Below, piece after piece: positions 1 through 29,645 of a DNA stretch of 64,000 nucleotides (position 1 is the first letter of the stretch; each line of letters begins with the position of its first letter). Location of the stretch: assembly GCA_018268455.1 (NCBI GenBank), contig JAFDWM010000003.1, positions 8,211 through 72,210 of the forward strand. Direction: 5' to 3'. A model generated the notes under the pieces. It had not been told where the DNA came from. It searched no databases and saw nothing but the letters and a program-made list of their open reading frames with translations. Origin of the DNA: Actinomycetota bacterium (GTDB taxonomy: Bacteria; Actinomycetota; Actinomycetes; Actinomycetales; Microbacteriaceae). The translations under genes and the position numbers were made by a program.

Positions 1-549
1 GATCAGGGCCGTCTGTTCACCGTCGTCGGCGCGATGCTGGAGAACCCGGACGATCCGCTGTGGACCAACCCGAAGATCGGCGTCGCCAGCCGCGAGGAGA
101 TGCTCGCGCTGTCGGCGGGGCAGGCGTACGACGAGCTCGCGAAGGCGCAGGGCGCGGATCCGACGCGGTGGCACTGGGGCGAGCTGCACGCGATCACGCT
201 CACGCACCAGACACTCGGCAAGAGCGGCATCGCGCCGATCGAGTGGCTGTTCAACCGCGGCCCGTTCCCGATCGGCGGTGGATCCTCGCTCGTCGACGCC
301 ACCGGCTGGCCGCTGGGCGGTTCGTATGCGGCGACCACCGTGCCGTCGATGCGGATGGTGGTGGATCTCTCCGACTTCGACGCCTCGACGTGGAACCACC
401 TCACCGGCGCGAGCGGTCACGCCTTCGGCCCGCACTACACCGATCAGACGGAGAACTGGTCGAAGGGGCTGCAGTCGCCGTGGCCGTTCTCGGCGAAGGC
501 CGTCGACAGGGCCGCCGTGGACACCCTCGTGCTCGCGCCGAAGGGCTGA
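1..549 (+). CDS. penicillin acylase (penicillin amidase) family protein, C-terminal part; the 5' end lies outside the window
   Basis: The frame is open from nt 1. The translation (...RWHWGELHAITLTHQTLGKSGIAPIEWLFNRGPFPIGGGSSLVDATGW...SMRMVVDLSDFDASTWNHLTGASGHAFGPHYTDQTENW) resembles the conserved C-terminus of the Ntn-hydrolase penicillin amidase family. Confidence 0.8.
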   Translation, partial: DQGRLFTVVGAMLENPDDPLWTNPKIGVASREEMLALSAGQAYDELAKAQGADPTRWHWGELHAITLTHQTLGKSGIAPIEWLFNRGPFPIGGGSSLVDATGWPLGGSYAATTVPSMRMVVDLSDFDASTWNHLTGASGHAFGPHYTDQTENWSKGLQSPWPFSAKAVDRAAVDTLVLAPKG

Positions 550-609: not shown

Positions 610-2106
610 TCAAGGCTCCCAGGTGTGCACGGGATCGCCGGCGTGCATGCGCTCCAGATAGTCGGCGAGCATACCGTGCAGCGCCTCTGAGCGCGTCGCA
701 CCGGCGCGCTCGCGGGCGGCGACGTTCTCCCGCTGCCAGACCGCGCCGTTGCGCCCGGTCAGGCAACGCTGCTCGATGACGCCCAGATACCGGTCTCGCT
801 CGGTCGGATCCACTCCGTACGCGTCGAGGCCCTCCGCCGCCGCGGGCAGCAGCCGACGCAGCACCAGCTCGCGCGGGCCGATCCAGCCCACTTCCGGCCA
901 GTACAGGCGCGACTCGATGCCGTCCCGCGCGGCGGAGTGCAGATTCTCCTCGGCGGCATCGAAGGTCATCTGCGTCCACAGCGGACGGTCGGCGGCGGCG
1001 AGCGCCCGCACCAGGCCGTAGTAGAACGCGGCGTCGGCGAGCACGTCGACGATGCTGGGACCGGCCGGCAGCACCCGATTCTCCAGGCGCAGGTGGTAAC
1101 CGCCGCCGGATCCGTCATAGATCGGACGGTTCCACCGGTACACCGTGCCGTTGTGCATGCGCAGCTCCGACAGCGCTGGCGCACCGCCGCGAGCGAGCAC
1201 CTCGAACGGATCCTCGTCGCTGGTCACCGGCAGCAACGCGGGGAAGTACCGCGAGTTCTCCTCGAACAGGTCGAAGATCGACGTCACCCAGCGCTCCCCG
1301 AACCACACCCGCGGGCGCACGCGCTGGTTCTTCAGCTCGACCGAGCGGGTGTCGGTCGCCTGCTCGAACAGCGGGATGCGCGTCTCGTGCCAGAGCGCCT
1401 TCCCGGCGAAGAAGGGCGAGTTGGCGGCGAGCGCGACCTGCACGCCCGCGATCGCCTGCGCGGAGTTCCAGTACGCGGCGAACTCGGTCGGATCCACCTG
1501 CAGGTGCAGCTGAACCGATGTGCACGCGGCTTCGGGCAGGATCGTGTCGCAGACGATGTCGAGCGTCTCCCTGGCGCCGCCGTCGATGAGCGCCGGTCCG
1601 TCCAGGCGCAGTTCGATGTCCTCGCCGCGGGCGGCGAGGATCTGCTGACTGAGCAGGTCGTACCGCGGATCCGCCGACAGCCATTCCCCGGTGAAGTGAT
1701 GCTCGTCGAGAGTCGGCAGCATGCCGATCATGGCGAGCCCGCAGCCGGTGCCGCGCGCCCTCTCGTCAGCCGCGTTCAGCGAGGTTCGCAGTGCCTGCTC
1801 CAGCTCGGTGACGCTGCTCCCGGCGAGCGGCCGGGGCTCGACGTTGATCTCGATGTTGAACTGGGCGAGCTCGGTCTGGAACGCCGGGTCGGCGATCGCG
1901 TCGAGCGCCGCCGCGTTCGCCATCGCCGGGTCGCAGGCCTCGTCGACCAGGTTGAGCTCGATCTCGAGGCCGAGCCGCGGCTCCGACACCTCGAACTGCC
2001 CGTCCGCGAGCATCACGGCGAGCGCATCCAGACAGCGTGCCGTCTTCTCGCGGAACCTGGTGCGGTCCTGCCGCGTGAAGACGCGTTCGTCGACGTGGTC
2101 TCCCAT
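610..2106 (-). CDS. glutamate--cysteine ligase family 2 (GCS2) / carboxylate-amine ligase
   Basis: 498-aa ORF with non-repetitive composition. The N-terminus ...GLEIELNLVDE... and overall length fit actinobacterial GCS2-type ligases. Confidence 0.8.
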   Translation of the reverse strand: MGDHVDERVFTRQDRTRFREKTARCLDALAVMLADGQFEVSEPRLGLEIELNLVDEACDPAMANAAALDAIADPAFQTELAQFNIEINVEPRPLAGSSVTELEQALRTSLNAADERARGTGCGLAMIGMLPTLDEHHFTGEWLSADPRYDLLSQQILAARGEDIELRLDGPALIDGGARETLDIVCDTILPEAACTSVQLHLQVDPTEFAAYWNSAQAIAGVQVALAANSPFFAGKALWHETRIPLFEQATDTRSVELKNQRVRPRVWFGERWVTSIFDLFEENSRYFPALLPVTSDEDPFEVLARGGAPALSELRMHNGTVYRWNRPIYDGSGGGYHLRLENRVLPAGPSIVDVLADAAFYYGLVRALAAADRPLWTQMTFDAAEENLHSAARDGIESRLYWPEVGWIGPRELVLRRLLPAAAEGLDAYGVDPTERDRYLGVIEQRCLTGRNGAVWQRENVAARERAGATRSEALHGMLADYLERMHAGDPVHTWEP

Positions 2107-2205: not shown

Positions 2206-2775
2206 GTGCAGCAGACGACGGTCGACGGGGTGCGGATCGCCTGGGCACGCACAGATCCTGCACCGCTCGGAGCGGACGGCGTGCCCGACCGCAGCGCACC
2301 GGCCGGCAATCGCCGAACCCTCGGGCGGGCGCTGATCACCACCCTGGCGGCCGAGCTCAACCCAGGTTCATCGGTGCGCATCGTGCAACGCTGCGCGGTC
2401 TGCGGCGGACCACACGGGCGCCCGCTGGTGACAGGCGCCGCGCTGATCGCGAGCGTCGCCTACGCGGATCCGTGGGTCGTCGTCGCGGTCACGCCAGAAA
2501 CGCTGCATGCCGCGATCGGCATCGACGCGGAGCGCGACGGAGCTGTCCCAGATCTCACCGCTCTGTTCGGGCCCGCGGATCCGCCCGACCTGCAGGGATG
2601 GACGGCGATCGAGGCGGTGCTCAAGGCCGACGGGCGAGGGATCCTGGCGCCGCCGCAGAACGTCGAGGTCGACAGTTCACGGGGACGCCTGCGGGACGGG
2701 CCATGGTTCACGTTGCATCCGGTACATGACCTTCCCGGCATGATCGTGACGCTGGCGGTCAGCGTGCGGGCGTGA
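2206..2775 (+). CDS. 4'-phosphopantetheinyl transferase (Sfp/EntD type)
   Basis: This is the 3' part of track ORF 937..2775; the upstream part is antisense to the ligase gene. There is an in-frame GTG at 2206. Motifs AIGIDAERDG (GxD..E) and GWTAIEAVLKADGRG (W/F-x-x-x-E-A-x-x-K) are typical of PPTases. Confidence 0.7.
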   Translation: MQQTTVDGVRIAWARTDPAPLGADGVPDRSAPAGNRRTLGRALITTLAAELNPGSSVRIVQRCAVCGGPHGRPLVTGAALIASVAYADPWVVVAVTPETLHAAIGIDAERDGAVPDLTALFGPADPPDLQGWTAIEAVLKADGRGILAPPQNVEVDSSRGRLRDGPWFTLHPVHDLPGMIVTLAVSVRA

Positions 2776-3331
2776 GACCCGCCGCCCACTCATCCACCGT
2801 GAGCACATCGGCCTGACGGGGGAAGACCTTCTCGAGCAGCACGCGGTGCACCTCCGGATCCTGATCCGCGCAGGCGTCCGAGAGCACGGTGAGTCCGAAG
2901 TCGTGATCGGCCGCGTGGCGAACCGTGCTGAGCACGACTCCGCTCGTCGAGACGCCGGCGAGCACGAGATCGGTCGCGTCGAGCCCGCGCAGCAGCACGT
3001 CGAGGTCGGAGGCGAACGCGCCGTACCGCCGCTTGACGACGACGGGCTCTCCGGGCAGCGGCGCGAGAGCGGCGACGATCTGCGTCGCGGCCGCGGTCTC
3101 GGTCATATGCGGGGCCGTGGGCGACTGCCTGATCGCGCCGAAGGCCTTGTTGCGCGCGGCCGCCTCGGGGAAGCCCTCGCGGAAGGCGACACGGACGAAG
3201 ACGACGGGAATGCCGGCGGCTCGAGCGGCGGCGAGGGCGCGCTGCGCGTGCACGATCACGTCGGAGCCGCCCTCGGCATAGCGCCCGGCGATGCCGTTCT
3301 GGAAGTCCATGAGCAGAAGTGCGGTGGTCAT
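2759..3331 (-). CDS. isochorismatase-family cysteine hydrolase
   Basis: MTTALLLMDFQNGI...VVVKRRYGAFASDLDVLLRGLDATDLVLAGVSTSGVVLSTVRHAADHDF matches the isochorismatase-like fold pattern. The start is taken at the internal ATG (MTTALLL); the track ORF extends to 3376. Confidence 0.85.
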   Translation of the reverse strand: MTTALLLMDFQNGIAGRYAEGGSDVIVHAQRALAAARAAGIPVVFVRVAFREGFPEAAARNKAFGAIRQSPTAPHMTETAAATQIVAALAPLPGEPVVVKRRYGAFASDLDVLLRGLDATDLVLAGVSTSGVVLSTVRHAADHDFGLTVLSDACADQDPEVHRVLLEKVFPRQADVLTVDEWAAGLTPAR

Positions 3332-3398
3332 CGCGGGCCCTTCCGAGTTCACAGCAGGGTTATTAGGCAGGTGCAACTGTGCAGTTTAGACTGTTGAT

Positions 3399-3851
3399 AT
3401 GCGCGAGAACGATCCCGCCGCTGATGCATCCGCTGTGAGCGCGCCGCAGACCGCGCTCGACCTGTGGGCTGTCGTCGCGCGGCTGCTCCGCCAGTTCCGC
3501 GAGGTCGGCGCCGATGAGACGATCACCCCGTCGCAGGCCTCGGCGCTGGCCCGGCTCGGCAAGGGCGGCGTCTCGACCGTGAGCGCCCTCGCGAGCGCTG
3601 AGCGGGTGCGCCCGCAGTCGATGGCCGCGACGGTCGAGGCGCTCGAGGCACGGGGGTTCGTCACCCGCACGCCGGATCCGGGTGACGGACGCCGCCAGAT
3701 CATCGAGCTCACCGACTCGGGGCGGGCAAGAGTCGCCGGCCAGCGGGATGCGGCCGCGACCTGGCTCGAGCACGCGCTCACGACCCTCGACCCAGACGAG
3801 CTGCACACGATCTCCTCGGCCACCGCGCTGCTGGAGCGGATGCTGCCGTGA
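3399..3851 (+). CDS. MarR family transcriptional regulator
   Basis: 150 aa with a winged-HTH pattern (ITPSQASALARLGKGGVSTVSALASAERVRPQSMAATVEALEARGFVTRTPDPGDGRRQIIELT). Confidence 0.9.
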   Translation: MRENDPAADASAVSAPQTALDLWAVVARLLRQFREVGADETITPSQASALARLGKGGVSTVSALASAERVRPQSMAATVEALEARGFVTRTPDPGDGRRQIIELTDSGRARVAGQRDAAATWLEHALTTLDPDELHTISSATALLERMLP

Positions 3852-3867: not shown

Positions 3868-5286
3868 ATGCCCGCGTTCGCCCCGCCGATCGGCGGCCCC
3901 GCCCCCGCGGGCCGCTTCGACCGGCGATTGCTCGCGCCGATGATGATCGGCGCGATCCTCAACCCGATCAACACGGCGATCATCGCCGTCGCGCTCACAC
4001 CGATCGGCGTCGCGCTCGGGGCACCCGCCAGCGAGACGGTATGGCTGGTGTCGAGCCTGTACCTCGCCACCGCGATCGGGCAGCCGCTCGTGGGCCGCCT
4101 CGTCGACGTCTTCGGCGTGCGCTCGCTCTTCCTGCTGGGCGCCGTGCTCGTCGCAGCCGCCGGGGCGATCGGCTTGTTCGCTCCGGAGAACCGTGACAGC
4201 ATCTGGTGGCTGGTCGCGGCACGGGTGATCCTGGGACTCGGCACGTGCGCCGGTTATCCCGCGGCGATGCACATGATCCGTGCGGAGGGCGACCGCACCG
4301 GTCTCGCCTCCCCCGCCGGCATCCTCACCCTGCTGTCGGTGACGACGCAGACCATCGCGGTGATCGCCCCGGCGCTCGGCGGCCTGCTCATCGGCGCCTG
4401 GGGCTGGCGGGCGACGTTCGCCGTGAACATCCCGCTCGGGGTCGCGTCGCTGCTGCTGGGCGCACTCTTCTTCCCGCGGCGCACGGGACTGGAGCCCGCG
4501 CCGGAGCACCGTCCGCGCATCGACGGCATCGGGATCCTGCTCTTCGCCATCGGGATGCTGGCGCTGCTGGTGTTCCTGCAGAACATCTCGCCGGCGCTGC
4601 TCTGGCTGCTTGCGGTCGCCCTGTTCGCGGGCGTCGCGTTCGTGTGGTGGGAGCGACGGATCCCGGATCCGTTCATCGACGTGCGCGTGCTCTCCGGCAA
4701 TGTGCCGCTGCTGCTCAGCTACGTGCGCTCGCTGCTGACCGCGACGATCTCGTACACGTTCGTGTACGGCTTCACGCAGTGGCTGGAGGACGGCCGCGGC
4801 CTCACCCCGACGGTCGCCGGGCTCGTGCTGCTGCCAGTGTTCGCGGCGGGTGTCGCGGTCGCGCTCGCGTTCGGACGCCGGCCCGAGGTGGTCTGGAAGC
4901 TGCTGGTCGGATCCACCGCGCAGCTGATCGCCGGACTCCTTGTGCTGTTCATGACCGGATCCTCGCCGATCTGGTTCCTGGTGCTGGCGATGCTGGTGCT
5001 CGGGATCCCGCAGGGGCTGAACAACCTCGCGATCCAGAACGCGCTCTACTACCAGGCCGAGCCCGCGCGCATCGCCTCCTCGGCGGGCCTGCTGCGCACG
5101 TTCTTCTACCTCGGGGCGATCATCTCGGCCGTGATCTACGGCAACGTCTACGGCGCGAGGGCGACGACCGCCGGCCTGCACACCCTGGGCTGGGTCGTCG
5201 TCGGGATCGCCGTACTGTTCCTGCTCATCACCGTGTTCGACCGGTCGCTCGCGCGGATCGGGAGGGGGACGCACACGGCGGGCTGA
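3868..5286 (+). CDS. MFS transporter
   Basis: In-frame ATG at 3868, 17 nt after the MarR stop. The product is polytopic and hydrophobic with MFS-like loops (GRLVDVFGVRSLFLLG). The track ORF start at 3682 overlaps marR and is unlikely. Confidence 0.85.
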   Translation: MPAFAPPIGGPAPAGRFDRRLLAPMMIGAILNPINTAIIAVALTPIGVALGAPASETVWLVSSLYLATAIGQPLVGRLVDVFGVRSLFLLGAVLVAAAGAIGLFAPENRDSIWWLVAARVILGLGTCAGYPAAMHMIRAEGDRTGLASPAGILTLLSVTTQTIAVIAPALGGLLIGAWGWRATFAVNIPLGVASLLLGALFFPRRTGLEPAPEHRPRIDGIGILLFAIGMLALLVFLQNISPALLWLLAVALFAGVAFVWWERRIPDPFIDVRVLSGNVPLLLSYVRSLLTATISYTFVYGFTQWLEDGRGLTPTVAGLVLLPVFAAGVAVALAFGRRPEVVWKLLVGSTAQLIAGLLVLFMTGSSPIWFLVLAMLVLGIPQGLNNLAIQNALYYQAEPARIASSAGLLRTFFYLGAIISAVIYGNVYGARATTAGLHTLGWVVVGIAVLFLLITVFDRSLARIGRGTHTAG

Positions 5287-5357
5287 CCTGTGTCGCACGC
5301 TGTGACGAAGTGGCGATGGGCGCACGTGCTCCGGTAGACCTGAGCCGGAGGCATCCC

Positions 5358-5678
5358 ATGTACACGTCGACGTTCATCTTCGAGGCGAAGCCCTACGATG
5401 CGGAGTTCCACCGGTTCAACGACGAGATCGCCGAGCGTGCGCGGGCGATCCCGGGGTTCCTCGGCGAGGAGGACTGGTACAACGCCGAAATCGGGCTGCA
5501 CTCCGAGGTCTACTACTGGGAGACGCGCGAGGCCATGCAGCAGCTCATCGGGATGCCCGTGCACCGCGAGGCCAAGCGCCTTCATGAGCGCTGGATCGGC
5601 CCGTACCGGGTGGTGATCGGTGAGGTCCTCTCCACCTACGGGCAACCGGGACTCGGGCTCGCCCACGTCCCGGAGTGA
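5358..5678 (+). CDS. antibiotic-biosynthesis-monooxygenase (ABM)-like small protein
   Basis: 106-aa ORF at the 3' end of track ORF 4206..5678, starting MYTSTFIFEAKPYDAEFHRFNDEI... Its size and ferredoxin-like pattern fit the ABM/Dabb superfamily. Confidence 0.6.
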   Translation: MYTSTFIFEAKPYDAEFHRFNDEIAERARAIPGFLGEEDWYNAEIGLHSEVYYWETREAMQQLIGMPVHREAKRLHERWIGPYRVVIGEVLSTYGQPGLGLAHVPE

Positions 5679-5723
5679 GGCTGCCGGAAGCGGAGCGGTC
5701 GGGATCCTCCCGTCCCGGCGAAG

Positions 5724-7106
5724 TCACGGTGTCGCGCGCGGATTCACGTTCAGGGCCTGGGTGATCGGGGCCGGCTCGACGTCGGGGGCGTCCGACGACA
5801 GGGCCGGGAGGGGCGGCAGGGCGAGACCGTCGAGCCAGGCGTCGAAGAACGCCTCCAGACGCCGACCGGCGATCGAGGCCGCAAGCTCACGGAAGTCGGC
5901 CGTGGTCGCCGTGCCGCCCCCGAAGCGCCCCGTCCAGGCGCGGAGGATCCCGAAGAACGTGTCGTCGCCGACGGTGAGCCGCAGGGCGTGCAGCAGCAGG
6001 GCGCCGCGCTTGTAGACCCGGTCGTCGAACATGAGCTCCGGGCCGGGATCCGACAGCCGCAGGTCCTGCGGCTCGGCCGCGAGCGCCGCCCAGTGCCCGA
6101 GCGCCTTGGCGTGCGCGGAATGCGAGCCCTTCGCCTCCGACCAGATCCACTCGGCGTAGCAGGCGAAGCCCTCGTTCAGCCAGATCTCCCGCCAGCGGGC
6201 GACGCCGACGCTGTTGCCGAACCACTGGTGGGCGAGCTCGTGTGCGATGAGGCGCTCCAGGCTCCCCTTGCCGTCGATGTGGTTCGCGCCGAACACACCC
6301 ATGCCTTGCGCCTCGAGCGGGATCTCCAGGTCGTCGGCCGTCACCACGAGGCGATACGACGGCAGCGGATAGGGGCCGAAGGCCTCCGCGAACACGGCCA
6401 TCATGCGCGGCAGCGGAGCGAGATCCGCCTGTGCCCGGGCTGCCAGCGAGGCCGGGTGCAGCACCTGCCCCTCGACACCGGCGAGGTCCATGCCCCGAGC
6501 GACATATTTTCCGATCTGCACCGTCGCAAGGTAGGTGGGCGTGGGCGTCGAGCGCTCGAACACCCAGGTGGTGCGACCACCCTTCGTCGTCGTGGACACC
6601 GGTTCCGCAGCAGCGACCGTGTAGCCGGGGTCCGTCGTGACGGCGAGCCGATAGGTCGCCTTGTCGGAGGGGTGGTCGTTGCAGGGGAACCACGAGGGTG
6701 CGCCGACGGGCTGGGAGGCGACGATCGCGCCGTCCTCCAGCTCCTCCCAGCCGAGCGTGCCCCAGCGCGTGCGGCGCGGGCGCGGAGCCCCACCGTACGA
6801 GACGGTGAGCTCGAACGGATCCCCCGCCGCCAGCCCGCGGCCGAAGGCGACCTTGAGCTTGCGGTCGGTCTGGGTGAAGCCGATGCGGCCGCCCTTGCCC
6901 GCGCCTCCGCGCGGCGACTGCACCTTGGTCGCGCGGAGGCCGACGAGGTCCAGCGAGATCGACTTCGCCGCCTCGAGCATGCGCCCGCGCACGACCGCGA
7001 CGCCGTCCAGCCGATTCGTGCCGAGGCGGTAGTCGATGCTCAGGTCGTAGTGCTCGACGCGGTAGCGGCGGTCGCCACTGTGCGGGGTGTAGTCGTCGGG
7101 GCTCAC
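5724..7106 (-). CDS. M1 family zinc metallopeptidase (aminopeptidase N-like)
   Basis: 460 aa carrying HELAHQWFGN followed by WLNEGFACY, which is the gluzincin HEXXH-(18)-E signature of family M1. Confidence 0.9.
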   Translation of the reverse strand: MSPDDYTPHSGDRRYRVEHYDLSIDYRLGTNRLDGVAVVRGRMLEAAKSISLDLVGLRATKVQSPRGGAGKGGRIGFTQTDRKLKVAFGRGLAAGDPFELTVSYGGAPRPRRTRWGTLGWEELEDGAIVASQPVGAPSWFPCNDHPSDKATYRLAVTTDPGYTVAAAEPVSTTTKGGRTTWVFERSTPTPTYLATVQIGKYVARGMDLAGVEGQVLHPASLAARAQADLAPLPRMMAVFAEAFGPYPLPSYRLVVTADDLEIPLEAQGMGVFGANHIDGKGSLERLIAHELAHQWFGNSVGVARWREIWLNEGFACYAEWIWSEAKGSHSAHAKALGHWAALAAEPQDLRLSDPGPELMFDDRVYKRGALLLHALRLTVGDDTFFGILRAWTGRFGGGTATTADFRELAASIAGRRLEAFFDAWLDGLALPPLPALSSDAPDVEPAPITQALNVNPRATP

Positions 7107-7148
7107 TGTTCCATGCTCACAGATCGCGGGCGTGCGCGCGGGGCGGAC

Positions 7149-10100
7149 TCACTCCGCGTCCTGGTAGCTGCGCACCTTCACCGCACGCCACGGACCGATC
7201 GGGTTGCCGCTCCAGCGGCTGCCGACGGGCACGGTCTCCCCGCGCATGACGAGCGACGCGGGGCCGACTGTCGCATCGGATCCGATCGTCGCGGCGGGCA
7301 GGATCACGCTGTGCGGGCCGAGGGTGGCGCCCGCCTCGAGGGTGACCGTGTCGATGCTCATCACGCGGTCGTGGAAGAGGTGGGTCTGCACCACGCAGCC
7401 GCGGTTGACCGTGGCGCCGTCGCCGAGGGTGACGAGATCGGGCTCGGGCAGCCAGTAGCTGTCGGTCCAGACGCCCTTGCCGATCGTGGCGCCGAGTGAG
7501 CGCAGCCACACGGCGAGCGCGGGTGTGCCCGCCGCCGCGTTCGCGAACCACGGGGCGGCCATCATCTCGGTGAACGTGTCTGCCACCTCGGTGCGCCACA
7601 CGAAGCTCGACCACAGCGGGTGCTCGCCCGGACGGATCGGGCCGACGAAGATCCATTTCGCCGCGGTCGCGAATCCCGCGGCGACGGCGCCGGCGACCAG
7701 CAGCACGAGCCCGGAGAGCACCACCGTCCACCCCAGGCCGAGGCTCGCGGCCAGCGCGGCGAGCGTGAGCAGCACCGCCAGTCCGAGCGCGCAGGTGAGG
7801 ATCACGGGCACGATCCGGCACAGCTCCCACAGGCCCCGGGCGACCCGCAGCGCGGTGCGCGGGCGGTAGGTGCGCTCGAGATCCGACTCGTTCACGACCC
7901 GACGCAGACGTACCGGCGGCGAACCCAGCCAGGAGGAACCCGCCTTCGCCTTGTCGGGCGCGACCGAGAGCACCGCGACGAGGCCGTCCTTGGGCACCTT
8001 GTGCCCGGCGCCCGCCATGCCGGAGTTGCCGAGGAAGGCGCGTTTGCCGATGCGCGCCGCGGCGATCCGCATCCAGCCCCCGCCGAGCTCGTAGGACGCG
8101 ACCATCGTGTCGTCGGCGAGGAAGGCGCCGTCATCGATCGTCGTCATCGACGGGATCAGCAGCACGGTGGAGATCTCCACCTCCTTGCCGACCTTCGCCC
8201 CGAGCAGACGCAGCCAGGTGGGGGTGAGCAGGCTCGCATAGAGCGGGAAGAGCAGGGTGCGGGCGGAGTCGAGCAGGCGCTCGGTGGTCCAGGCCTGCCA
8301 GGCGATCCGGCCGCGGACCGGATGGATGCCCTCCCGCAGCCCGATCGAGAGCAGGCGGGTCGCGGCCACGACGAGCCCGGCGAACACGAACCCGGTGAGC
8401 AGCACGGCCGGCACCAGCCACGCGGCGAGCGCCGGCAGCGCGGCCGCGAGCGAAGCGGCACCACGCGCGCCCTGCACGAGCAGCAGCGCACCCGCGGCGA
8501 ACGCGAGCACCGGCAGCAGCCCGAGGCCCATGCTCGATGCGGCATATGCCCACAGCCAGCGCCGCGGGGTGGGCGGACGCTCGGGCGCGAGCGGGGCGGA
8601 CTTGCCGCCCACGCGCACCGCGGGAGAGCCGGCCCAGCGCTGTCCGGCGCGCACCCGGCCGAACACGGCGGATCCGGGCGCGACCTCGGCGCCGCGGCCG
8701 ATGCGGGTGCCGGGGGCGAGCGTGCTGCGCGCGCCCACCACCGCTCCCGCCCCGATGCGGATCCCGCCGATGCGCACCGTGTCGCCGTCGATCCAATAGC
8801 CGGAGAGGTCGACCTCAGGCTCGATCGCCGCGCCCCGGCCGATGTCGAGCATGCCGGTCACGGGCGGCAGCGTGTGCAGGTCGACGTCGGGGCCGATCTT
8901 CGCCCCGAGCGCCCTCGCGTAGTAGCTCACCCAGGGCGCGCCGGCGAAGCCGACCGGGTCGATCTGGTGACTCACCTGCTCGGCGAGCCACAGGCGCAGA
9001 TGCACACCGCCGCCGCGCGGGTGGTCTCCGGCCCGCACGCCGACGAGCAGCAGCCGCGCGGCGCCGGCGGCGATCGCCATCCGCCCGAACGGGGTCGCGA
9101 ACACCACGAGCCCGGCGATCAGCAGCCACAGCGGCGCGCTCGGCAGCCACTCGAACCCCGGCACCAGGTGCAGGAACGCGCTGCCGGTGAGCAGCCAGAG
9201 CAGCCAGCGGATCCCGCCGAGCACGAACAGCGGCACCCCGAGCAGAGTCTGGATCCACTGCATCCGCCGCGGCGTCGGACGCGAGGAGTGGAACTCAGCC
9301 GGCTCGTCGTCCTCGTCGCCGGCATCGGCCTCGACGGCGTCGGCCATGCGTCGCAGGCGCGGCAGGTCGTACACGTCGGCCATCGTGAAATCGGGCGCGC
9401 GGGACCGGATCCGGCTCACCAGCTGCGCGGCCGCGAGGGATCCGCCGCCGAGCTGGAAGAAGTCGGCGTCCTCGTCGAGCGGACGGGTGCCGAGCACCGC
9501 GAACCACTGCTCCGCGAGCCAGGCCGCGGTGCCGGTGAGGGTGGAGTCGTCGGCATCCGGATCCGTGAGCGGCCAGGGCAGCGCCGCCTTGTCTACCTTG
9601 CCCGAGGTGCGCACCGGCAGCTCGTCCATGACCGCGAGCAGCGGGATGAGCGGGGCCGGGAGCGTCTCGGCGAGCTCGGCACGCGCGGTCTGCCGCTCGA
9701 ACCCCTCGGTCGGCACCACGTAGCCGACGAGCAGGGGGATCCCGCCCTCGCTGCGCTGCACGACGACGGTCGCCGCCGTGACGGCGGTGAGGTTCTGCAG
9801 CGCGGCCTCGACCTCACCGAGCTCGATCCGCCGGCCGCCGATCTTGACCTGGTCATCGGCGCGGCCCTGGAACACCAGCCCGGCCTGCTCATACCGCACG
9901 AGGTCCCCGGAGCGGTAGGCGCGGTCCCAGCCCAGCGACGGCATCGGCGCGTACTTCTCCGCGTCCTTCACCGGATCCAGATACCGTGCGAGGCCGACGC
10001 CGCCTATCACCAGCTCCCCGGCCTCGCCCTCTGCGACGCGGTTGCCCTCGGCGTCGACGACCGCGAGCTCCCAGCCGTCCAACGGCAGCCCGATCCGCAC

Positions 10101-11108
10101 CGGCTCGCCGGCGCGCAGCGCCTCGCCGTCCATCTGCGCAGCGCACGCGACGACCGTCGCCTCGGTGGGTCCATAGGTGTTCCAGACCTCTCGGTCCTCC
10201 CCGACGAGCCGGGCGGCGAGCTCGGGCGGCAGCGCCTCGCCGCCGAAGATCAGCAGGCGCAGGTTCTCGATCGCGTCCTGCGGCCAGAGCGCCGCGAGCG
10301 TCGGCACCGTCGACACCGCGGTGATGCCGTGCCCAAGCAGCCACGGCCCGAGGTCTTCGCCGGAGCGCATCAGCGCGCGCGGTGCCGGCACGAGGCAGGC
10401 GCCGTAGCGCCACGCCAGCCACATCTCCTCGCAGGAGGCGTCGAACGCGACGGAGAGGCCGGCGAGCACACGGTCGCCGGGGCCGAGCGGCGCCTTCTGC
10501 AGGAACAGGTTCGCCTCGGCGTCGACGAACGCGGCGGCGGCGCGGTGGGTCACGGCGACGCCCTTGGGCACGCCGGTCGAGCCCGAGGTGAAGATGATCC
10601 ACGCATCGTCCTCGGGGGCGGGGCGAGGCACGGCGGTGATCGCGACGGAGTTCGGGTGCGGATCCGCTCCCGCGAACAGCCCGGATCCGCGCACTCCCCC
10701 CACGACATTCGACGGACCCGCGTCGGGGCTCGGCACGAACACCCCGCCCGCGCCGATCACGCCGCGCACCCTCGCCTCGCCGAACACCAGATCCGCCCGC
10801 TCCTGCGGGTCGTCCGCATCCACCGGCACGTACGCCGCACCCGCCGCGAGGGTGCCGAGGATCGCGATGTAGAGCTCGCGATCGCCGGACGGCATGCGGA
10901 TCCCGATCCGGTCGCCCCGCACGACGCCCTGCTCATGCAGGCGCGTGGCGGTGCGCCACACCTGGGCGAGCAGCTCGCCGTAGCTCAGGGCGCCCCGCGC
11001 GTCCTCGATCGCAGAGGCGTCCGGGGAGCGGCGCGCGGTGTCGACGAGGATGTCGATCAGCGTGCGCGGCGGGGCCGCGAGCGCGGCGCGGTCGAGGATG
11101 TCTTGCAT
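7149..11108 (-). CDS. Pls/PosA-family single-module non-ribosomal peptide synthetase (A-T plus three TM-flanked hexapeptide-repeat domains)
   Basis: A-domain cores: IIFTSGSTGVPKGV, NTYGPTEATV, GELVIGGVGLARYL, YRSGDLV, GRADDQVKIGGRRIELGEVE, SGKVDK. Carrier motif: FFQLGGGSLAAAQL. These are followed by three modules, each with paired hydrophobic helices plus a left-handed-beta-helix-like repeat. The start is taken at ATG 11108 (MQDILDRAAL...); the track ORF extends to 11195. Confidence 0.85.
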   Translation of the reverse strand: MQDILDRAALAAPPRTLIDILVDTARRSPDASAIEDARGALSYGELLAQVWRTATRLHEQGVVRGDRIGIRMPSGDRELYIAILGTLAAGAAYVPVDADDPQERADLVFGEARVRGVIGAGGVFVPSPDAGPSNVVGGVRGSGLFAGADPHPNSVAITAVPRPAPEDDAWIIFTSGSTGVPKGVAVTHRAAAAFVDAEANLFLQKAPLGPGDRVLAGLSVAFDASCEEMWLAWRYGACLVPAPRALMRSGEDLGPWLLGHGITAVSTVPTLAALWPQDAIENLRLLIFGGEALPPELAARLVGEDREVWNTYGPTEATVVACAAQMDGEALRAGEPVRIGLPLDGWELAVVDAEGNRVAEGEAGELVIGGVGLARYLDPVKDAEKYAPMPSLGWDRAYRSGDLVRYEQAGLVFQGRADDQVKIGGRRIELGEVEAALQNLTAVTAATVVVQRSEGGIPLLVGYVVPTEGFERQTARAELAETLPAPLIPLLAVMDELPVRTSGKVDKAALPWPLTDPDADDSTLTGTAAWLAEQWFAVLGTRPLDEDADFFQLGGGSLAAAQLVSRIRSRAPDFTMADVYDLPRLRRMADAVEADAGDEDDEPAEFHSSRPTPRRMQWIQTLLGVPLFVLGGIRWLLWLLTGSAFLHLVPGFEWLPSAPLWLLIAGLVVFATPFGRMAIAAGAARLLLVGVRAGDHPRGGGVHLRLWLAEQVSHQIDPVGFAGAPWVSYYARALGAKIGPDVDLHTLPPVTGMLDIGRGAAIEPEVDLSGYWIDGDTVRIGGIRIGAGAVVGARSTLAPGTRIGRGAEVAPGSAVFGRVRAGQRWAGSPAVRVGGKSAPLAPERPPTPRRWLWAYAASSMGLGLLPVLAFAAGALLLVQGARGAASLAAALPALAAWLVPAVLLTGFVFAGLVVAATRLLSIGLREGIHPVRGRIAWQAWTTERLLDSARTLLFPLYASLLTPTWLRLLGAKVGKEVEISTVLLIPSMTTIDDGAFLADDTMVASYELGGGWMRIAAARIGKRAFLGNSGMAGAGHKVPKDGLVAVLSVAPDKAKAGSSWLGSPPVRLRRVVNESDLERTYRPRTALRVARGLWELCRIVPVILTCALGLAVLLTLAALAASLGLGWTVVLSGLVLLVAGAVAAGFATAAKWIFVGPIRPGEHPLWSSFVWRTEVADTFTEMMAAPWFANAAAGTPALAVWLRSLGATIGKGVWTDSYWLPEPDLVTLGDGATVNRGCVVQTHLFHDRVMSIDTVTLEAGATLGPHSVILPAATIGSDATVGPASLVMRGETVPVGSRWSGNPIGPWRAVKVRSYQDAE

Positions 11109-11234
11109 CGGGTTCCGTTCGAACGGCTGCACACAGGGCGCGTGCGCGCTCAGGGTACCGCGGGCCGGGAAACAGCGGGTGAAGCGACCGCGCACCGCGC
11201 CTGCCGCCTGCGACCGTGCATCGTGGCGGATCGC

Positions 11235-11290
11235 TTGACACCCTCGATGTCTCCACTCAGACTGGCCTGATAAGCAAGCGCTCGCTTATC
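11235..11290 (+). promoter_or_regulatory. putative promoter (TTGACA-17 nt-CAGACT) followed by the palindrome GATAAGCAAGCGCTCGCTTATC, upstream of the SDR gene and in the divergent spacer with the NRPS gene
   Basis: TTGACA lies at 11235-11240 and CAGACT at 11258-11263. The 7-bp inverted arms GATAAGC/GCTTATC flank AAGCGCTC at 11269-11290, 18 nt before the ATG. Confidence 0.35.
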
Positions 11291-11307
11291 TCGAGAACGG
11301 ATCCGAC

Positions 11308-12090
11308 ATGACCGACGCCGACGCCCTCCCGCACCGCTTCGAGGGACAGGTCGCGCTGGTCACCGGCGCGAGCCGCGGCATCGGGTTCGCGATCGCGCAG
11401 CGCCTGGTCGCCGAGGGCGCCCGCGTCTGCCTCACCGCGCGCAAGCCGAATCCGCTGGCCGAGGCGGTCGCCGCGCTTCCCGCCGGCCGCGCGATCGGCG
11501 TCGCCGGCGGCAGCGGCGACCCCGCGCATCGCGCCGAGACGCTCGACACGATCGCGCGCGAGTTCGGCGGCCTCGACGTGCTGGTGAACAACGCCGGGAT
11601 GAATCCGGTCGCCTCCCCGCTCGTCGATCTCGACCTCGACATAGCCCGCAAGATCAACGAGATCAACCTGCTCGGCACGCTGGGCTGGATCCAGGGCGCG
11701 GTGCGCCACGAGGCCCTGCAGTTCGCCGCTCGCGGAGGACGCATCATCAACGTCGCCTCGGTCACCGGCTACACCCCGTCCGAGGGGATCGGGATGTACG
11801 GCGTCACCAAGGCCGCACTCATCCACCTCACCCGCACCCTGGCCGTGGAGCTCGGGCCCCGCATCCGCGTCAACGCCGTCGCGCCGGCCGTCGTGAAGAC
11901 GCAGTTCGCCCGCGCCCTGTACGAGGGCAAGGAGGACGACGTGACCGCCGCCTACCCGCTCAAGCGGCTCGGCACCCCGGAGGACGTCGCCGGCGGCGTC
12001 GCCTACCTCGCCTCGGACGACGCCTCCTGGGTCACCGGGCAGACCGTGACGCTCGACGGCGGGCTTCTCTCGGCGGGTGGCGCCGCTTGA
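11308..12090 (+). CDS. SDR family oxidoreductase (FabG-like)
   Basis: VALVTGASRGIGFAIA (TGxxxGxG), NNAG and YGVTKAAL (YxxxK); 260 aa. Confidence 0.9.
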   Translation: MTDADALPHRFEGQVALVTGASRGIGFAIAQRLVAEGARVCLTARKPNPLAEAVAALPAGRAIGVAGGSGDPAHRAETLDTIAREFGGLDVLVNNAGMNPVASPLVDLDLDIARKINEINLLGTLGWIQGAVRHEALQFAARGGRIINVASVTGYTPSEGIGMYGVTKAALIHLTRTLAVELGPRIRVNAVAPAVVKTQFARALYEGKEDDVTAAYPLKRLGTPEDVAGGVAYLASDDASWVTGQTVTLDGGLLSAGGAA

Positions 12091-12106: not shown

Positions 12107-12493
12107 TCAGCCGGCCGGCGGGGTGCGCTTCGAGTCGGCGAGTTCGTCGACGACGAGCGAGCGCTCGTCGATCGTGCGGTTGCGGTAGGCCTGGCGTCCG
12201 ACCATGTGCGCCGACAGCGGAGCGGTGGCGAACTGCATCAGCACCACCGGCGCGACCAGCAGCAGACCCAGCAGGATCCCGATCACCGAGCGCTGCGACA
12301 GCGCGATCGCCAGGCAGATCAGCAGCAGCCCGAGCACCTGCGGCTTGGTCGCGGCATGCAGCCGGTTGGGCACGTCACGCAGCCGCAGCAGCCCGATCGC
12401 GGCGATGAGGCACAGCAGCGCGCCGATCAGCACGAGCACCCAGACGGTGACGTCGACGACGGCATCGGGGATCCGCCACTCGAACACGTTCAT
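12107..12493 (-). CDS. mrpG: Na+/H+ antiporter subunit G
   Basis: 128 aa with three hydrophobic helices. It is the last gene of the mrp operon and carries the motif LHAATKPQVLG typical of MnhG/PhaG. Confidence 0.85.
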   Translation of the reverse strand: MNVFEWRIPDAVVDVTVWVLVLIGALLCLIAAIGLLRLRDVPNRLHAATKPQVLGLLLICLAIALSQRSVIGILLGLLLVAPVVLMQFATAPLSAHMVGRQAYRNRTIDERSLVVDELADSKRTPPAG

Positions 12494-12536
12494 CGCTTCC
12501 CTCTCCCCTCTGGGCCCGGCACGGTCTCGTCGGCGC

Positions 12537-12809
12537 TCATGACGACGGCGTGTTGTCGCGGCGCGCGACGTAGCGCGCGACCGAGATGGATCCGAACACG
12601 CCCACCGCCGCGACGACGATCAGCACGGGCAGCGTGCGGGTGTGATGGTTGATGGCCATGTCGGCGCCGAGCACGCACATGACCTCGGTGAGCAGCACGT
12701 CGGCCGCGACGGCGCGGTCGAGGATCGACGGGCCGAGCACGATGCGGATCACCGCGAGCACCGCGGCGACCGCGAACACGATGAGCACGACCAGCAGCAG
12801 CGGATTCAT
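12537..12809 (-). CDS. mrpF: Na+/H+ antiporter subunit F
   Basis: 90-aa membrane protein (MNPLLLVVLIVFAVAAVLAVIRIVLGPSILDRAVAADV...). Its ATG at 12809 overlaps the mrpE stop, and its position in the operon fits. Confidence 0.8.
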   Translation of the reverse strand: MNPLLLVVLIVFAVAAVLAVIRIVLGPSILDRAVAADVLLTEVMCVLGADMAINHHTRTLPVLIVVAAVGVFGSISVARYVARRDNTPSS

Positions 12810-13453
12810 CGCTCCCCCTCCCCCGGCGACCGATGCGATCGGCCGGATCCATCCGAGCGCCCCGATCCCGCGAACGCGGCTCCGGCGGAGGCGCCCGCAC
12901 GCTGATCCGCGCGCAGGGCGGCAGCCTGCGCCGGCGACCCGAGCGCCCGCACGATCCGCCGCTCCCAGCGCAGCACGTCGGCGCGTTGCCGCTCCACGTC
13001 GCCGAGCGAGCGCACGCCGATCACGTGCAGATAGAGCGTGCGGCGATCGCGATCGGCCTCGACGACGAAGGATCCGGGGATCAGCGAGGCCGTGACCGCG
13101 ACGTGCGTCATGACGAGGTCGTCGGCGTAGCGCAGCGGCACCGCGATGATCGCGGCGCCCGGTGCGCGGCGCGGATCCAGCACCTGCCAGGCCACGCTGA
13201 GCGAGCCGTGCACGACCGCGGCGAGGAACTGCACGACCAGCACCGCCGCCCACCACACGTTGATCCGCCCGGACAGCTCGATCGTCGGAAGCCGGAACAC
13301 CCGCGTCACGAACAGCGCCGCGGCGACGCCGGTCACGAACGAGAGCGCCGTGAACTGGCCCCACAGCATCATCCACAGCACGATCAGCCAGAGCAGGAAC
13401 GGCAGCTGCACGCCGATCTCGCGCCAGATGCTGCGCTTGGTGCCGGGGCTCAT
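12806..13453 (-). CDS. mrpE: Na+/H+ antiporter subunit E
   Basis: The start ATG 13453 overlaps the mrpD stop (ATGA). It has N-terminal TM helices and fits MnhE. The C-terminus is longer than usual (Ala/Gly/Ser/Arg-rich). Confidence 0.8.
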   Translation of the reverse strand: MSPGTKRSIWREIGVQLPFLLWLIVLWMMLWGQFTALSFVTGVAAALFVTRVFRLPTIELSGRINVWWAAVLVVQFLAAVVHGSLSVAWQVLDPRRAPGAAIIAVPLRYADDLVMTHVAVTASLIPGSFVVEADRDRRTLYLHVIGVRSLGDVERQRADVLRWERRIVRALGSPAQAAALRADQRAGASAGAAFAGSGRSDGSGRSHRSPGEGER

Positions 13454-15009
13454 GACGACCCCTCGTCCTGGGTCAGCATGTCCAGATGCACCGGCTCGAG
13501 CAGGTGCGCGCCGATCCGGTCGCACAGCTCGTAGATGGGTCCGGCGAACACCGTCAGCGACAGGGTCACGGCGACCATGCCGCCGGTCGCGAACGTCATG
13601 ATGGTCGGGATTCGACGGCGCTCCTGCTGCTCGTCGGCGGCGGGCGCGCTGCCGAGGTGCGCGATGCGCTCGGCGTCCTCCGGCGCGTCGCCCTCCTTCT
13701 CGCGCCAGAACGCGAGGTTCCAGGCGCGCATGAGCGCGTACAGCGTGAGCAGCGACGTGAGCACGCCGCCCGCGATGAGCACCCAGATGAGCGGCGTCGC
13801 CACCTGCGCCGCGGCCTGGAACAGGGCGAACTTGCCGATGAATCCGGAGAACGGCGGGAGTCCGCCGAGGTTGATCGCCGGCACGAAGTAGAGCACGGCG
13901 ATCACCGGCGCCGCCTTCATGAGCCCGCGCACCTTCAGGATCGACGTGCTGCCGGCGCGGCGCTCCACGAGCCCGACCGCGAGGAACAGGGTGGTCTGCA
14001 CGATGATGTGGTGCACGATGTAGTACACCGTGGCGCCGACGGCCGCCGGGGTCACGATCGCCAGCCCGAACACCATGTAGCCGACGTGACTGACCAGCGT
14101 GAACGACAGGATCCGCTTCAGCTCCGCCTGCGCGACCGCGCCCAGGATGCCGATGACCATCGTGGCGAGCGCCACGATCATCAGCAGCGTGTTGACGCTG
14201 GAGTCGTTGAAGAGCTGCGTCTCGGTGCGGATCAGCGCGTACACGCCCACCTTGGTGAGCAGGCCCGCGAACACCGCCGTCACCGGGGCCGGCGCGGTCG
14301 GATACGAGTCGGGCAGCCAGAACGACATCGGGAACACAGCCGCCTTGATCCCGAACGCGACCACGAGCATGAGGTGCAGCACGAGCTGCGTGCTGGGCGG
14401 GATCTCGGTGATCCGCTCGGCGATCTGGGCCATGTTCACGGTGCCGAGCGCCGCGTAGATGAGCGCGATCGCGACGAGGAACAGCACCGAAGACACCAGC
14501 GAGACGACGATGTAGACGGCACCCGTGCGGATCCGCGATTCGGTGCTGCCCAGCGTGATCAGCACGTACGACGCGACCAGCAGGATCTCGAAGCCGACGT
14601 AGAGGTTGAACAGGTCGCCGGCGATGAACGCGTTGAAGATGCCCGCCGCGAGGATCAGGTACGACGGGTTGAAGATCGAGATCGGGGTCTCCTCCGCCCC
14701 ATCCGCGGCGCCCTGACCGACCGAGAACAAGAGCACCGCGACGAGCACGATGCTGGAGACCAGCACCAGCAGCGCGGCCAGCCGGTCGACGTAGAGCACG
14801 ATGCCGAAGGGGGCCGGCCAGCCGCCGACCATCACGGCGATCGGCTTCGTGCGGTCGACCACCACGAGCAGCGTCGCGGCGATCACCGAGACCGATGCGA
14901 GGGTCGCCACCGAGACGATCACCTGCACCCGGTTGTTACGACCGAAGGCGAGGGTGACGGCGGCACCGAGCAGCGGCAGGGCGACCAGCAGCGGGACGAG
15001 GGCGTTCAT
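13450..15009 (-). CDS. mrpD: Na+/H+ antiporter subunit D (NuoN/NuoM-like)
   Basis: 519-aa polytopic protein resembling proton-pumping NDH-1 antiporter-like subunits; its position in the operon fits. Confidence 0.9.
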   Translation of the reverse strand: MNALVPLLVALPLLGAAVTLAFGRNNRVQVIVSVATLASVSVIAATLLVVVDRTKPIAVMVGGWPAPFGIVLYVDRLAALLVLVSSIVLVAVLLFSVGQGAADGAEETPISIFNPSYLILAAGIFNAFIAGDLFNLYVGFEILLVASYVLITLGSTESRIRTGAVYIVVSLVSSVLFLVAIALIYAALGTVNMAQIAERITEIPPSTQLVLHLMLVVAFGIKAAVFPMSFWLPDSYPTAPAPVTAVFAGLLTKVGVYALIRTETQLFNDSSVNTLLMIVALATMVIGILGAVAQAELKRILSFTLVSHVGYMVFGLAIVTPAAVGATVYYIVHHIIVQTTLFLAVGLVERRAGSTSILKVRGLMKAAPVIAVLYFVPAINLGGLPPFSGFIGKFALFQAAAQVATPLIWVLIAGGVLTSLLTLYALMRAWNLAFWREKEGDAPEDAERIAHLGSAPAADEQQERRRIPTIMTFATGGMVAVTLSLTVFAGPIYELCDRIGAHLLEPVHLDMLTQDEGSS

Positions 15010-15581
15010 CGCGGCTCCTCCCCCGTGCTCTCCCCCGTGCTGCGGCCGCCGTCCGTGTCGGTCTGGTCGGGTGCAGCCGGCACCGGCCGGTCCACGGGCG
15101 CGTCGTCGACGAGGCCGGCGAGATCCTTCGCATGCAGCACTCGGATCGGCGCGGTCGCGACGCCCACGAAGTCTGTCGTCGCGTCGTCGTCCTCGAGGTC
15201 GACCTCGTCATCCATGAGGTCTTCCTCGATCTCCGTGCGCTCGCGCAGCGCGATGTCGGCCTCGTCGTCCTCGACGGTGTCGGCCTGGCCGAGCTGCCAC
15301 GAGCGGTAGATGAGGGCGAGCAGAAAGGCGCTCACCGCGAAGGTGATCACGATCGCGGTGAGCGTGAGCGCCTGCGGAAGCGGATCGCTCACCTCGCCCT
15401 CGGTGCCGTAGAACGGCGCGCGGCCGGGGCGGCCCATCACGATCAGCAGCAGCAGGTTGACTGCGTTGCCGAGCAGCAGGAACCCGATCAGCACCCGGGT
15501 GAGGCTGCGCTCGAGCATCGCGTACACGCCGCAGCCGAACAGCACCGCCATCACGATGATGAGCACGAGGGAGACGTCCAT
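15006..15581 (-). CDS. mrpC: Na+/H+ antiporter subunit C (NuoK-like) with an acidic C-terminal extension
   Basis: MDVSLVLIIVMAVLFGCGVYAMLERSLTRVLIGFLLLGNAVNLLLL... This is the last 576 nt of track ORF 15006..18347. The ATG at 15581 overlaps the mrpA stop. Confidence 0.85.
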   Translation of the reverse strand: MDVSLVLIIVMAVLFGCGVYAMLERSLTRVLIGFLLLGNAVNLLLLIVMGRPGRAPFYGTEGEVSDPLPQALTLTAIVITFAVSAFLLALIYRSWQLGQADTVEDDEADIALRERTEIEEDLMDDEVDLEDDDATTDFVGVATAPIRVLHAKDLAGLVDDAPVDRPVPAAPDQTDTDGGRSTGESTGEEPR

Positions 15582-21077: not shown

Positions 21078-21773
21078 GTGCGTCTCGTCATCGCCCGCTG
21101 CGCCGTGGACTACACCGGCCGCCTCAACGCCCATCTGCCCCTCGCCACGCGTCTGCTCGTGCACAAGGGCGACGGGAGTCTGCTCGTGCACTCCGACGGC
21201 GGCAGCTACAAGCCGTTGAACTGGATGAGCCCGCCGTGCCGCCTCGAGCCGGAGGAACCGGGGGAGGAGGAGGCGTCGGCCGGCGTCGCCGAGGTCTGGC
21301 GGGTGACGCACCAGAAGACGGGCGACGCGCTGCGCGTGCAGATCTACGAGATCCTGCACGACTCCAATCACGACCTCGGCGTGGATCCGGGGCTGCAGAA
21401 AGACGGCGTAGAAGCGGATCTGCAGCGGCTGCTCGCCGAGCAGGTCGACCGGATCGCCGAGGGCGCGACGCTCATGCGCCGCGAGTACCCCACCGCGATC
21501 GGACCGGTCGATCTCATGGTGCGCGACGCGGACGGCGTCGCCATCGCCGTCGAGGTGAAGCGCCGCGGCGACATCGACGGCGTCGAGCAGCTCACGCGCT
21601 ATCTCGAACTCCTCGGCCGGGATCCGCATCTCGCCCCCGTGCAGGGCGTGTTCGCCGCGCAGGAGATCAAGCCGCAGGCCCGCGTGCTCGCCGAGGATCG
21701 CGGGATCCGCTGCCTCGTGCTCGACTACGAGGACATGAAGGGCATCGAGTCCGGAGCCCCGCGCCTGTTCTGA
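21078..21773 (+). CDS. nucS: endonuclease NucS (EndoMS, mismatch-specific)
   Basis: [21 protein letters not shown]...GSYKPLNWM...[33 protein letters not shown]. This is the characteristic NucS N-terminal domain plus a RecB-like nuclease core; 231 aa. Confidence 0.92.
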
Positions 21774-29615: not shown

Positions 29616-29645
29616 CATGCACGCACGGTTCCGCGCGCCGCAGCG

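Follow-up and report, generated by a model that had tools for sequence, protein, structure and literature searches.

We identified, in a stretch of 64,000 nucleotides (nt) of a Microbacteriaceae genome (contig JAFDWM010000003.1, assembly GCA_018268455.1; referred to as the window), a pls gene for a single-module membrane non-ribosomal peptide synthetase (NRPS) of the Pls/PosA family, directly followed by a gene for a pldII-like M1 zinc metallopeptidase. The product of this synthetase is very probably epsilon-poly-L-lysine (hereafter epsilon-PL). It can be assigned because the enzyme shares its substrate specificity code with characterised lysine-polymerising Pls enzymes and because pls is paired with a pldII-like gene. 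The original prediction, made from the DNA letters alone, had described the gene as an orphan with no assignable product and had considered its monomer unreadable. The architecture that it described was confirmed; the orphan status and the missing product were not supported. The window comes from a Microbacterium and carries a standard pls-pldII locus, which is of a known kind.

The translated product has 1,319 amino acids (aa), and the peptide strings quoted in the original prediction were all found in it. Pfam identified a full adenylation (A) domain (AMP-binding at aa 23–375, E 5e-63; AMP-binding_C at aa 432–504) and a thiolation (T) or carrier domain, and also matched Hexapep; at E ≤ 0.01, none of the matches in Pls was to a family of condensation, epimerisation or thioesterase domains. 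In NCBIfam, TIGR01733 was matched with 340 bits (cutoff 317), and TIGR02353, the model named “Pls/PosA family NRPS”, with 733.9 bits compared to a cutoff of 423.1, covering aa 619–1304 of the protein and positions 2–695 of the 695 positions of the profile. With an A domain, a T domain, the TIGR02353 region and predicted pairs of transmembrane (TM) helices, and with no condensation, epimerisation or thioesterase domain, the protein is by its sequence a member of the Pls/PosA family. This assignment had been proposed originally, and it supports the idea of an iteratively assembled amino-acid homopolymer that went with it. Both residues on which the proposal depended are present: Ser557, by sequence the attachment site of phosphopantetheine, is invariant (203 of 203 aligned homologues), and the A10 lysine is Lys504 within SGKVDK. 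The ATG at 11108, from which the product opens with MQDILDR, was favoured as start codon because the consensus of 39 homologues opens with MQ..LDR; the longest possible open reading frame (ORF) starts at a GTG at 11195.

The Stachelhaus code, read from aa 223, 224, 227, 266, 287, 289, 311, 319, 320, and 504, is DAESIGTVVK. This is the code of the Pls of Streptomyces albulus, for which lysine was confirmed experimentally as the substrate (PMC10522769, Supplementary Table 2), and S. albulus and Corynebacterium variabile Pls both carry it (PMC8117764, Data Set S3). The same code was found in all 120 of 120 close, Microbacterium-like homologues and in 79 of 82 actinobacterial loci, the remaining three having DAESIGTVIK. 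The best match of the A domain in the PDB was 7WEW, the A domain of the epsilon-poly-L-lysine synthase of S. albulus (E 2e-173), and the pocket segments FDASCEE, VSTVPTLAAL, LLI(F/V)GGE, and NTYGPTE(A/T)TVVACAA are identical in both. The gene neighborhood points to the same product, as the pls-pldII operon separates epsilon-PL synthetases from those for diaminopropionic acid (Dap) and diaminobutyric acid (Dab), and Lys-coded Pls homologues were listed for several genera, Microbacterium being one of them (PMC8117764). In a Microbacterium genome, antiSMASH reported an NAPAA cluster and scored it as 100% similar to that for epsilon-PL (PMC11869465). A chain of roughly 10–35 residues is expected, the exact length not being predictable.

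We consider it very unlikely that Pls of the window produces another cationic homopolymer, such as delta-poly-L-ornithine, poly-Dap, poly-Dab, epsilon-poly-beta-lysine, or an unknown polymer. The Pls/PosA family includes enzymes for all these products, and for PosA the code first pointed to lysine, while the true substrate turned out to be ornithine (PMC10522769). However, the published codes are DMEHNGTVSK for ornithine (Orn), DFECLSAVTK for Dab, DFEYVGTVTK for Dap, DGESVSVVNK for beta-lysine (beta-Lys), and DFECLSCVSK for D-Dab (PMC10522769). The code in the window agrees with the confirmed lysine enzymes at 10 of 10 positions and differs from those for Orn, Dab, Dap, and beta-Lys at 4–6 positions, including position 2, which selects for chain length and is Met in PosA, not Ala (PMC10522769). 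No dat, ask, or aminomutase genes, which would provide precursors of Dap, Dab, or beta-lysine, were present at the locus, and a pldII neighbor is a specific trait of synthetases for epsilon-PL (PMC8117764).

A comparison with 69 full-length representatives of 50%-identity clusters gave the same picture. All representatives with a C-terminal-domain identity of at least 33% to the window protein carry DAES(I/V)GTV(V/I)K, whereas the Orn, Dap/Dab, and beta-Lys code types occurred only at identities of 32% or less. These 69 sequences were also arranged in a distance-based neighbor-joining tree, with a 94%-identical proxy standing for the S. albulus enzyme and with the other products assigned solely by their codes. 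The query fell within a clade of three members that includes the S. albulus-type Pls. As suggested in the original prediction, the query was thereby placed in a phylogeny; it grouped with S. albulus-type Pls, and the Orn-, Dap-, Dab-, and beta-Lys-coded enzymes were much more distant. The proxy is the 1,319-aa Pls of Streptomyces sp. MspMP-M5 (L001; N-terminus MSSPLLESSFEPSE), whose A domain is 94% identical to 7WEW. It was obtained from a scan of genome contigs; the homologue search with the 7WEW A domain gave only proteins of up to 852 aa.

Several points weigh against epsilon-PL as the product of this locus. Our literature search found no demonstrated product for any Microbacterium enzyme, and neither the type of linkage (epsilon or alpha) nor the chain length can be read from sequence. 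Codes in this family can mislead, as the case of PosA illustrates (PMC10522769). Natively, C. variabile shows neither Pls expression nor epsilon-PL (PMC8117764), and by analogy the pls gene studied here may be silent under laboratory conditions. The peptidase next to pls has no leader, in contrast to S. albulus-type PldII, so that self-protection or turnover may proceed in another way.

That pls is a silent or decaying relic without a product we regard as highly improbable. The Pls of C. variabile was undetectable in native whole-cell proteomics (PMC8117764), and no sigma-70-like promoter was found upstream of pls in the window; the promoter scanner, however, is unsuited to actinobacterial DNA with 70% GC. 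The ORF is intact over its 1,319 codons and matches both family profiles over their full length, and its GC content at third codon positions (GC3, 0.93) is that of expressed genes of the window. Of the residues that are invariant across the family, all are kept except for one substitution (G1045A), and Ser557 and the A10 lysine are present. In addition, the best 120 homologue clusters are 72–93% identical to the window protein over 100% of the length, and those with a name are nearly all from Microbacterium; such conservation across many species argues for purifying selection.

The C-terminal half of Pls (about 700 aa) consists of three tandem units, each with two hydrophobic helices followed by a hexapeptide-like segment, as described originally. 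Kyte-Doolittle hydropathy gave six hydrophobic segments arranged in pairs (at about aa 621–641/654–681, 856–882/884–925, and 1092–1125/1126–1155). An AlphaFold2 model of aa 600–1319 (mean predicted local distance difference test score 79; predicted template modelling score 0.82) contained six long helices at these positions; after each helix pair came two short helices and then a series of short beta strands. Pairwise identity among the three units was 29–30% (z = 14–25 compared to shuffled sequences). The best PDB matches of the model in Foldseek were left-handed beta-helix acetyltransferases (3FTT, 8VR7, and CysE; probability ~1.0, E ~1e-4). No solved structure of the membrane domain of Pls was found in the PDB searches, nor was a paper on cryo-EM of a poly-L-lysine synthetase found in the literature search. 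As every TM pair brings the chain back, hydropathy and the model predict that all soluble domains of Pls lie on the same side of the membrane.

The three units, whose soluble parts are called C1, C2, and C3, are not equally conserved. Among 71 diverse family members of all code types, invariant polar residues were limited to C2 and C3, where the C3 set includes the motif QTHLFHDR, and the invariant residues of C1 are Gly and Pro only. This distribution suggests that a pseudo-trimer has just one active site, located at the interface of C2 and C3. This restriction could help to place the active site of the polymerisation domain, the structure of which is unsolved.

The original prediction of an M1 peptidase directly downstream of pls proved to be correct, and this gene corresponds to pldII. 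The product matched Peptidase_M1 (E 4.9e-27) and Peptidase_M1_N (E 2.6e-16) in Pfam, and the zinc site HEXXH-X18-E was read from the sequence as HELAH...WLNE. In S. albulus, pldII (1,404 bp) is adjacent to pls and translationally coupled to it, and encodes an endo-type epsilon-PL-degrading metallopeptidase that is needed for self-protection, is linked to the chain length of the product, and was described as acting outside the membrane (PMC9223678; the facts on PldII used here were drawn from this paper and PMC8117764). An M1 homologue directly follows pls in 69 of 80 actinobacterial loci, L001 included, with identities of 40–54%; the window peptidase is 40% identical to the one at the same place in L001. 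In Microbacterium pygmaeum and Microbacterium oleivorans, the pls and peptidase genes overlap by 4 nt. A scan of positions 5200–11400 gave no terminator-like site between pls and the peptidase gene and no promoters or terminators across the region, but this scanner is uninformative at 70% GC, its sigma-70-like search being unsuited to such actinobacterial DNA (GC content of the window: 67–74%).

The window peptidase has a short, hydrophilic N-terminus without upstream coding room for a leader, and neither a signal peptide nor a TM segment was seen when it was judged by hydropathy and by eye. Most of the pls-adjacent peptidases outside Streptomyces are likewise leaderless (comparison of L002 and L004 with L006–L084), and a Tat/Sec-like leader (RRALxRGAALxPLAATAAD) occurred only in S. 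albulus-type Streptomyces loci. These sequences suggest a cytoplasmic location of the peptidase outside the S. albulus clade. A leaderless partner peptidase in these lineages could inform why many actinobacteria retain pls.

The lysine polymer might then be part of an intracellular or cell-associated cycle of synthesis and turnover instead of being primarily a secreted antimicrobial. It could serve, for example, as a lysine or nitrogen reserve or as an envelope-associated polycation, following a logic like that of cyanophycin synthetase and cyanophycinase. Besides the leaderless peptidases, this idea is favored by the very broad conservation of the pair (at least 596 matching stretches in species-representative genomes), by the predicted position of the soluble Pls domains on one membrane face, and by the observation that C. 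variabile natively does not secrete epsilon-PL (PMC8117764). On the other hand, the C. variabile orthologue expressed in Streptomyces coelicolor released epsilon-PL of 26–35 residues into the culture (PMC8117764), the absence of a leader was judged by hydropathy and by eye, and no report of storage granules or cell-bound polylysine was found in the literature examined. We therefore hold a turnover cycle to be improbable here. The same low probability applies to its general form, in which Pls and a leaderless M1 peptidase, often together with a 4'-phosphopantetheinyl transferase (PPTase), would recycle polylysine inside or at the cell in Microbacteriaceae and most other non-Streptomyces Actinobacteria, with a single C2/C3 site (H1243, D1247, D999, and E978).

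A PPTase had been predicted at 2206–2775, and a profile of homologues and synteny make this reading a reasonable one. As single sequences, the ORF stretches 2206–2775 and 2107–2775 gave no significant match in Pfam, NCBIfam, or the PDB; the shorter one had a sub-threshold match to Pfam ACPS (E 0.004, 17.5 bits compared to a cutoff of 25). A profile built from 25 homologues, however, matched Sfp (1QR0) with E 4.8e-6 at positions 24–195, nearly the full length, and homologues of the ORF carry a 4'-PPTase family annotation. The PPTase motifs GIDAE and WTAIEAVLKADGRG are present, and the alignment of the 25 sequences shows conservation of D107, E109 (nearly invariant), E136, and K140. In M. pygmaeum, M. 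oleivorans, and Conyzicola nivalis, a homologue directly adjoins the pls-M1 pair and is convergent with it. The ORF at 2206–2775 probably activates the carrier domain of Pls. The divergent family to which it belongs mostly escapes the Pfam ACPS model and has an invariant CxxCGGPHG motif (C63, C66, and H70). In the WxxKE motif of the ORF, the usual Lys before Glu is Ile.

For S. albulus Pls it was shown that the A domain adenylates L-Lys and loads the T domain, that the C-terminal domain carries out the transfer, and that the enzyme itself determines chain length, with involvement of the TM linkers (W646 and L883) (PMC8506220). The columns of these two residues hold W654 and L887 in the window protein. 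In the mechanism that we propose for the window locus, pls would be co-transcribed with the PldII-type polylysine peptidase gene and served by the nearby Sfp-type PPTase, which would convert Ser557 of the carrier domain into its holo form. The A domain would adenylate L-lysine, the substrate indicated by the identical specificity code, and load it as a thioester. The six TM helices would carry three left-handed beta-helix segments, which would assemble at the cytoplasmic face into a single acyltransferase-like, pseudo-trimeric body. There, free lysine or the free growing polymer would attack the Lys-S-carrier thioester with its epsilon-amino group. By orthology with S. albulus Pls, one residue would be added per cycle and the chain would never be held covalently. 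These donor and acceptor roles, including that of the epsilon-amine as acceptor, were reportedly worked out for S. albulus Pls by Yamanaka et al. in 2008. The M1 peptidase would finally hydrolyse the polymer, for self-protection or turnover.

Table 1. Features of the pls locus and other genes of the window (AF2, AlphaFold2; C1–C3, soluble parts of the three C-terminal units).
Feature	Position	Strand	Remarks
pls, Pls-type single-module membrane NRPS	7149..11108	-	1,319 aa; stop codon 7149-7151; intact ORF; TIGR02353 and TIGR01733
Adenylation domain	9564..11108	-	aa 1-515; Pfam AMP-binding, AMP-binding_C; best PDB match 7WEW
Thiolation (carrier) domain	9333..9521	-	aa 530-592; Pfam PP-binding, E 1.7e-9; Ser557 in FFQLGGGSL
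Unit 1, TM1-TM2 hairpin and C1 left-handed beta-helix	8559..9272	-	aa 613-850; AF2 helices 614-646 and 660-687, then beta-helix strands
Unit 2, TM3-TM4 hairpin and C2	7845..8558	-	aa 851-1088; Pfam Hexapep match; invariant polar residues R967, E978, D999, N1028
Unit 3, TM5-TM6 hairpin and C3	7152..7844	-	aa 1089-1319; invariant polar residues E1174, E1222, D1224, H1243, D1247, R1248
pldII-like M1 zinc metallopeptidase	5724..7106	-	460 aa; 42 nt downstream of pls; Peptidase_M1, Peptidase_M1_N; HELAH-x18-E
Putative divergent Sfp-type 4'-phosphopantetheinyl transferase	2206..2775	+	189 aa; profile match to Sfp, synteny
Isochorismatase	2759-3376	-	between PPTase and peptidase
MarR	3399-3851	+	between PPTase and peptidase
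DHA2-type MFS efflux pump	about 3870-5286	+	between PPTase and peptidase
106-aa ORF (“ABM”)	5358-5678	+	without significant family match
SDR-family oxidoreductase	11308-12090	+	divergent from pls
Mrp/Mnh-type multisubunit Na+/H+ antiporter operon	12107-18484	-	upstream of pls; MnhA/B fusion of 967 aa, D, E, G subunits
LacI-family regulator	18697-19785	-	after antiporter operon
Penicillin amidase family gene, C-terminal part	34-549	+	cut by window start
GCS2-family carboxylate-amine ligase	610-2106	-	498 aa; weak matches to glutamate-cysteine ligase models
NucS endonuclease	21078-21773	+	
TetR regulator	23724-24332	-	adjoins long MFS transporters
MFS transporter, TRI12-like	24407-26533	-	708 aa, unusually long
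MFS transporter, TRI12-like	27384-29618	-	744 aa, unusually long

The original prediction included a MarR-MFS-ABM unit as the export part of a self-contained locus, a claim that was not supported. The block of isochorismatase, MarR, MFS pump, and 106-aa ORF that separates the PPTase gene from the peptidase gene was found only in the window and in a 93%-identical relative. It is absent at the pls locus of M. pygmaeum, M. oleivorans, and Conyzicola, where the PPTase directly abuts the peptidase, and it is unlinked to pls in all 80 more distant loci. We rejected MarR-MFS as a dedicated exporter because of this missing linkage in the 80 distant loci and its absence from the three Microbacteriaceae loci. 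The 106-aa “ABM” ORF was rejected as a part of the system as well: it has no significant family support, and its place is taken by a GNAT acetyltransferase gene in the 93%-identical relative, which is the closest strain. ORF 5358–5678 had no Pfam match at E ≤ 0.01, and the stretch 5283–5678 gave a Monooxy_af470-like match with E 0.086 and nothing in NCBIfam. Judged by these sequence comparisons, the block appears to have been inserted into an ancestral arrangement of pls, pldII, and the PPTase gene, and does not look like an export module.

On its other side, pls is flanked by a divergently transcribed SDR-family oxidoreductase gene. The upstream flank varies between strains, because in the closest relative an AbiEi_4-domain gene stands in place of the SDR gene. 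Farther upstream of pls, the Mrp/Mnh-type Na+/H+ antiporter operon is followed by a LacI-family regulator, and this arrangement is shared with the 93%-identical relative (L082). The other genes noted in the window are the partial penicillin amidase family gene, the GCS2-family ligase gene, the NucS endonuclease gene, and the two long MFS transporter genes with their TetR neighbor (Table 1).

Genes of this type are widespread in Microbacterium, with more than 120 homologue clusters, and in the Actinobacteria, and cannot be called orphans. Most of the named clusters among the best 120 are annotated as “Pls/PosA family non-ribosomal peptide synthetase”. When species-representative genomes were scanned with the A domain of S. 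albulus Pls, at least 596 matching stretches were confirmed, and the matches listed include Streptomyces, Amycolatopsis, Mycobacterium, Rhodococcus, Nocardia, Kribbella, Kocuria, and Microbacteriaceae. With the C-terminal domain as query, 743 clusters (50% identity) were obtained at E ≤ 1e-30 in an exhaustive search. Within Microbacterium, pls is not universal, because only one of three cheese Microbacterium genomes has a Pls homologue (PMC8117764, Data Set S3). Such genes are flagged automatically by NCBI (TIGR02353) and antiSMASH (NAPAA rule), and earlier publications already cover Pls-type synthetases, the Lys code, and the pls-pldII operon as well as their occurrence in coryneform actinobacteria, Microbacterium among them. 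The locus therefore carries little weight as a discovery. It has a modest practical value as another candidate source, outside Streptomyces, of the food preservative epsilon-poly-L-lysine.

Compared with known systems, the modelled C-terminal domain resembles galactoside and maltose O-acetyltransferases, the serine acetyltransferase CysE, and sugar N-acetyltransferases (3FTT, 8VR7, and 7RA4) in its fold and hexapeptide repeats. In trimeric hexapeptide acyltransferases the active sites lie between subunits, to which the proposed C2/C3 site can be likened. In contrast to these trimers, the beta-helices of Pls form one fused chain with TM hairpins between them and are unequally conserved. The acyl donor would be an aminoacyl-S-carrier instead of acyl-CoA, and identity is just 13–20%.

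PosA, the delta-poly-L-ornithine synthetase of Acinetobacter baumannii, shares the architecture and the TIGR02353 domain (PMC10522769), and its published AlphaFold model, which shows six membrane helices and a packing of three left-handed beta-helices, matches our model of the window protein. It differs in its code (DMEHNGTVSK), in which Met at position 2 selects the shorter ornithine, and representatives with a PosA-type code are only about 28–32% identical to the window C-terminal domain. No co-transcribed neighbor genes were reported for posA (PMC10522769).

The Pls of C. variabile (WP_014008652) also has the code DAESIGTVVK and, in our reading of the 34-residue pocket signature, differs from the window Pls in the last residue alone. 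It is 51% identical to S. albulus Pls (PMC8117764), compared with 52% between the window Pls and the S. albulus-type proxy. C. variabile belongs to the Mycobacteriales and the window organism to the Micrococcales, and the two enzymes are likened through their shared distance to S. albulus Pls.

The Pls of S. albulus NBRC 14147 (BAG68864) agrees with that of the window in its length of 1,319 aa, its A-T-(TM2-C)x3 architecture, its code DAESIGTVVK, and the M1 gene directly downstream. The window A domain is 59% identical to the 7WEW sequence and about 61% identical to that of the proxy L001, with which the full-length identity is 52% and the identity across the three C-terminal units about 44–53%. 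The partner peptidase resembles S. albulus PldII as an M1 zinc metallopeptidase of about 460 aa whose gene stands immediately after pls, with a predicted activity on epsilon-PL. Unlike the S. albulus locus, that of the window encodes a peptidase without a Tat/Sec-like secretion leader and has a putative dedicated PPTase gene nearby.

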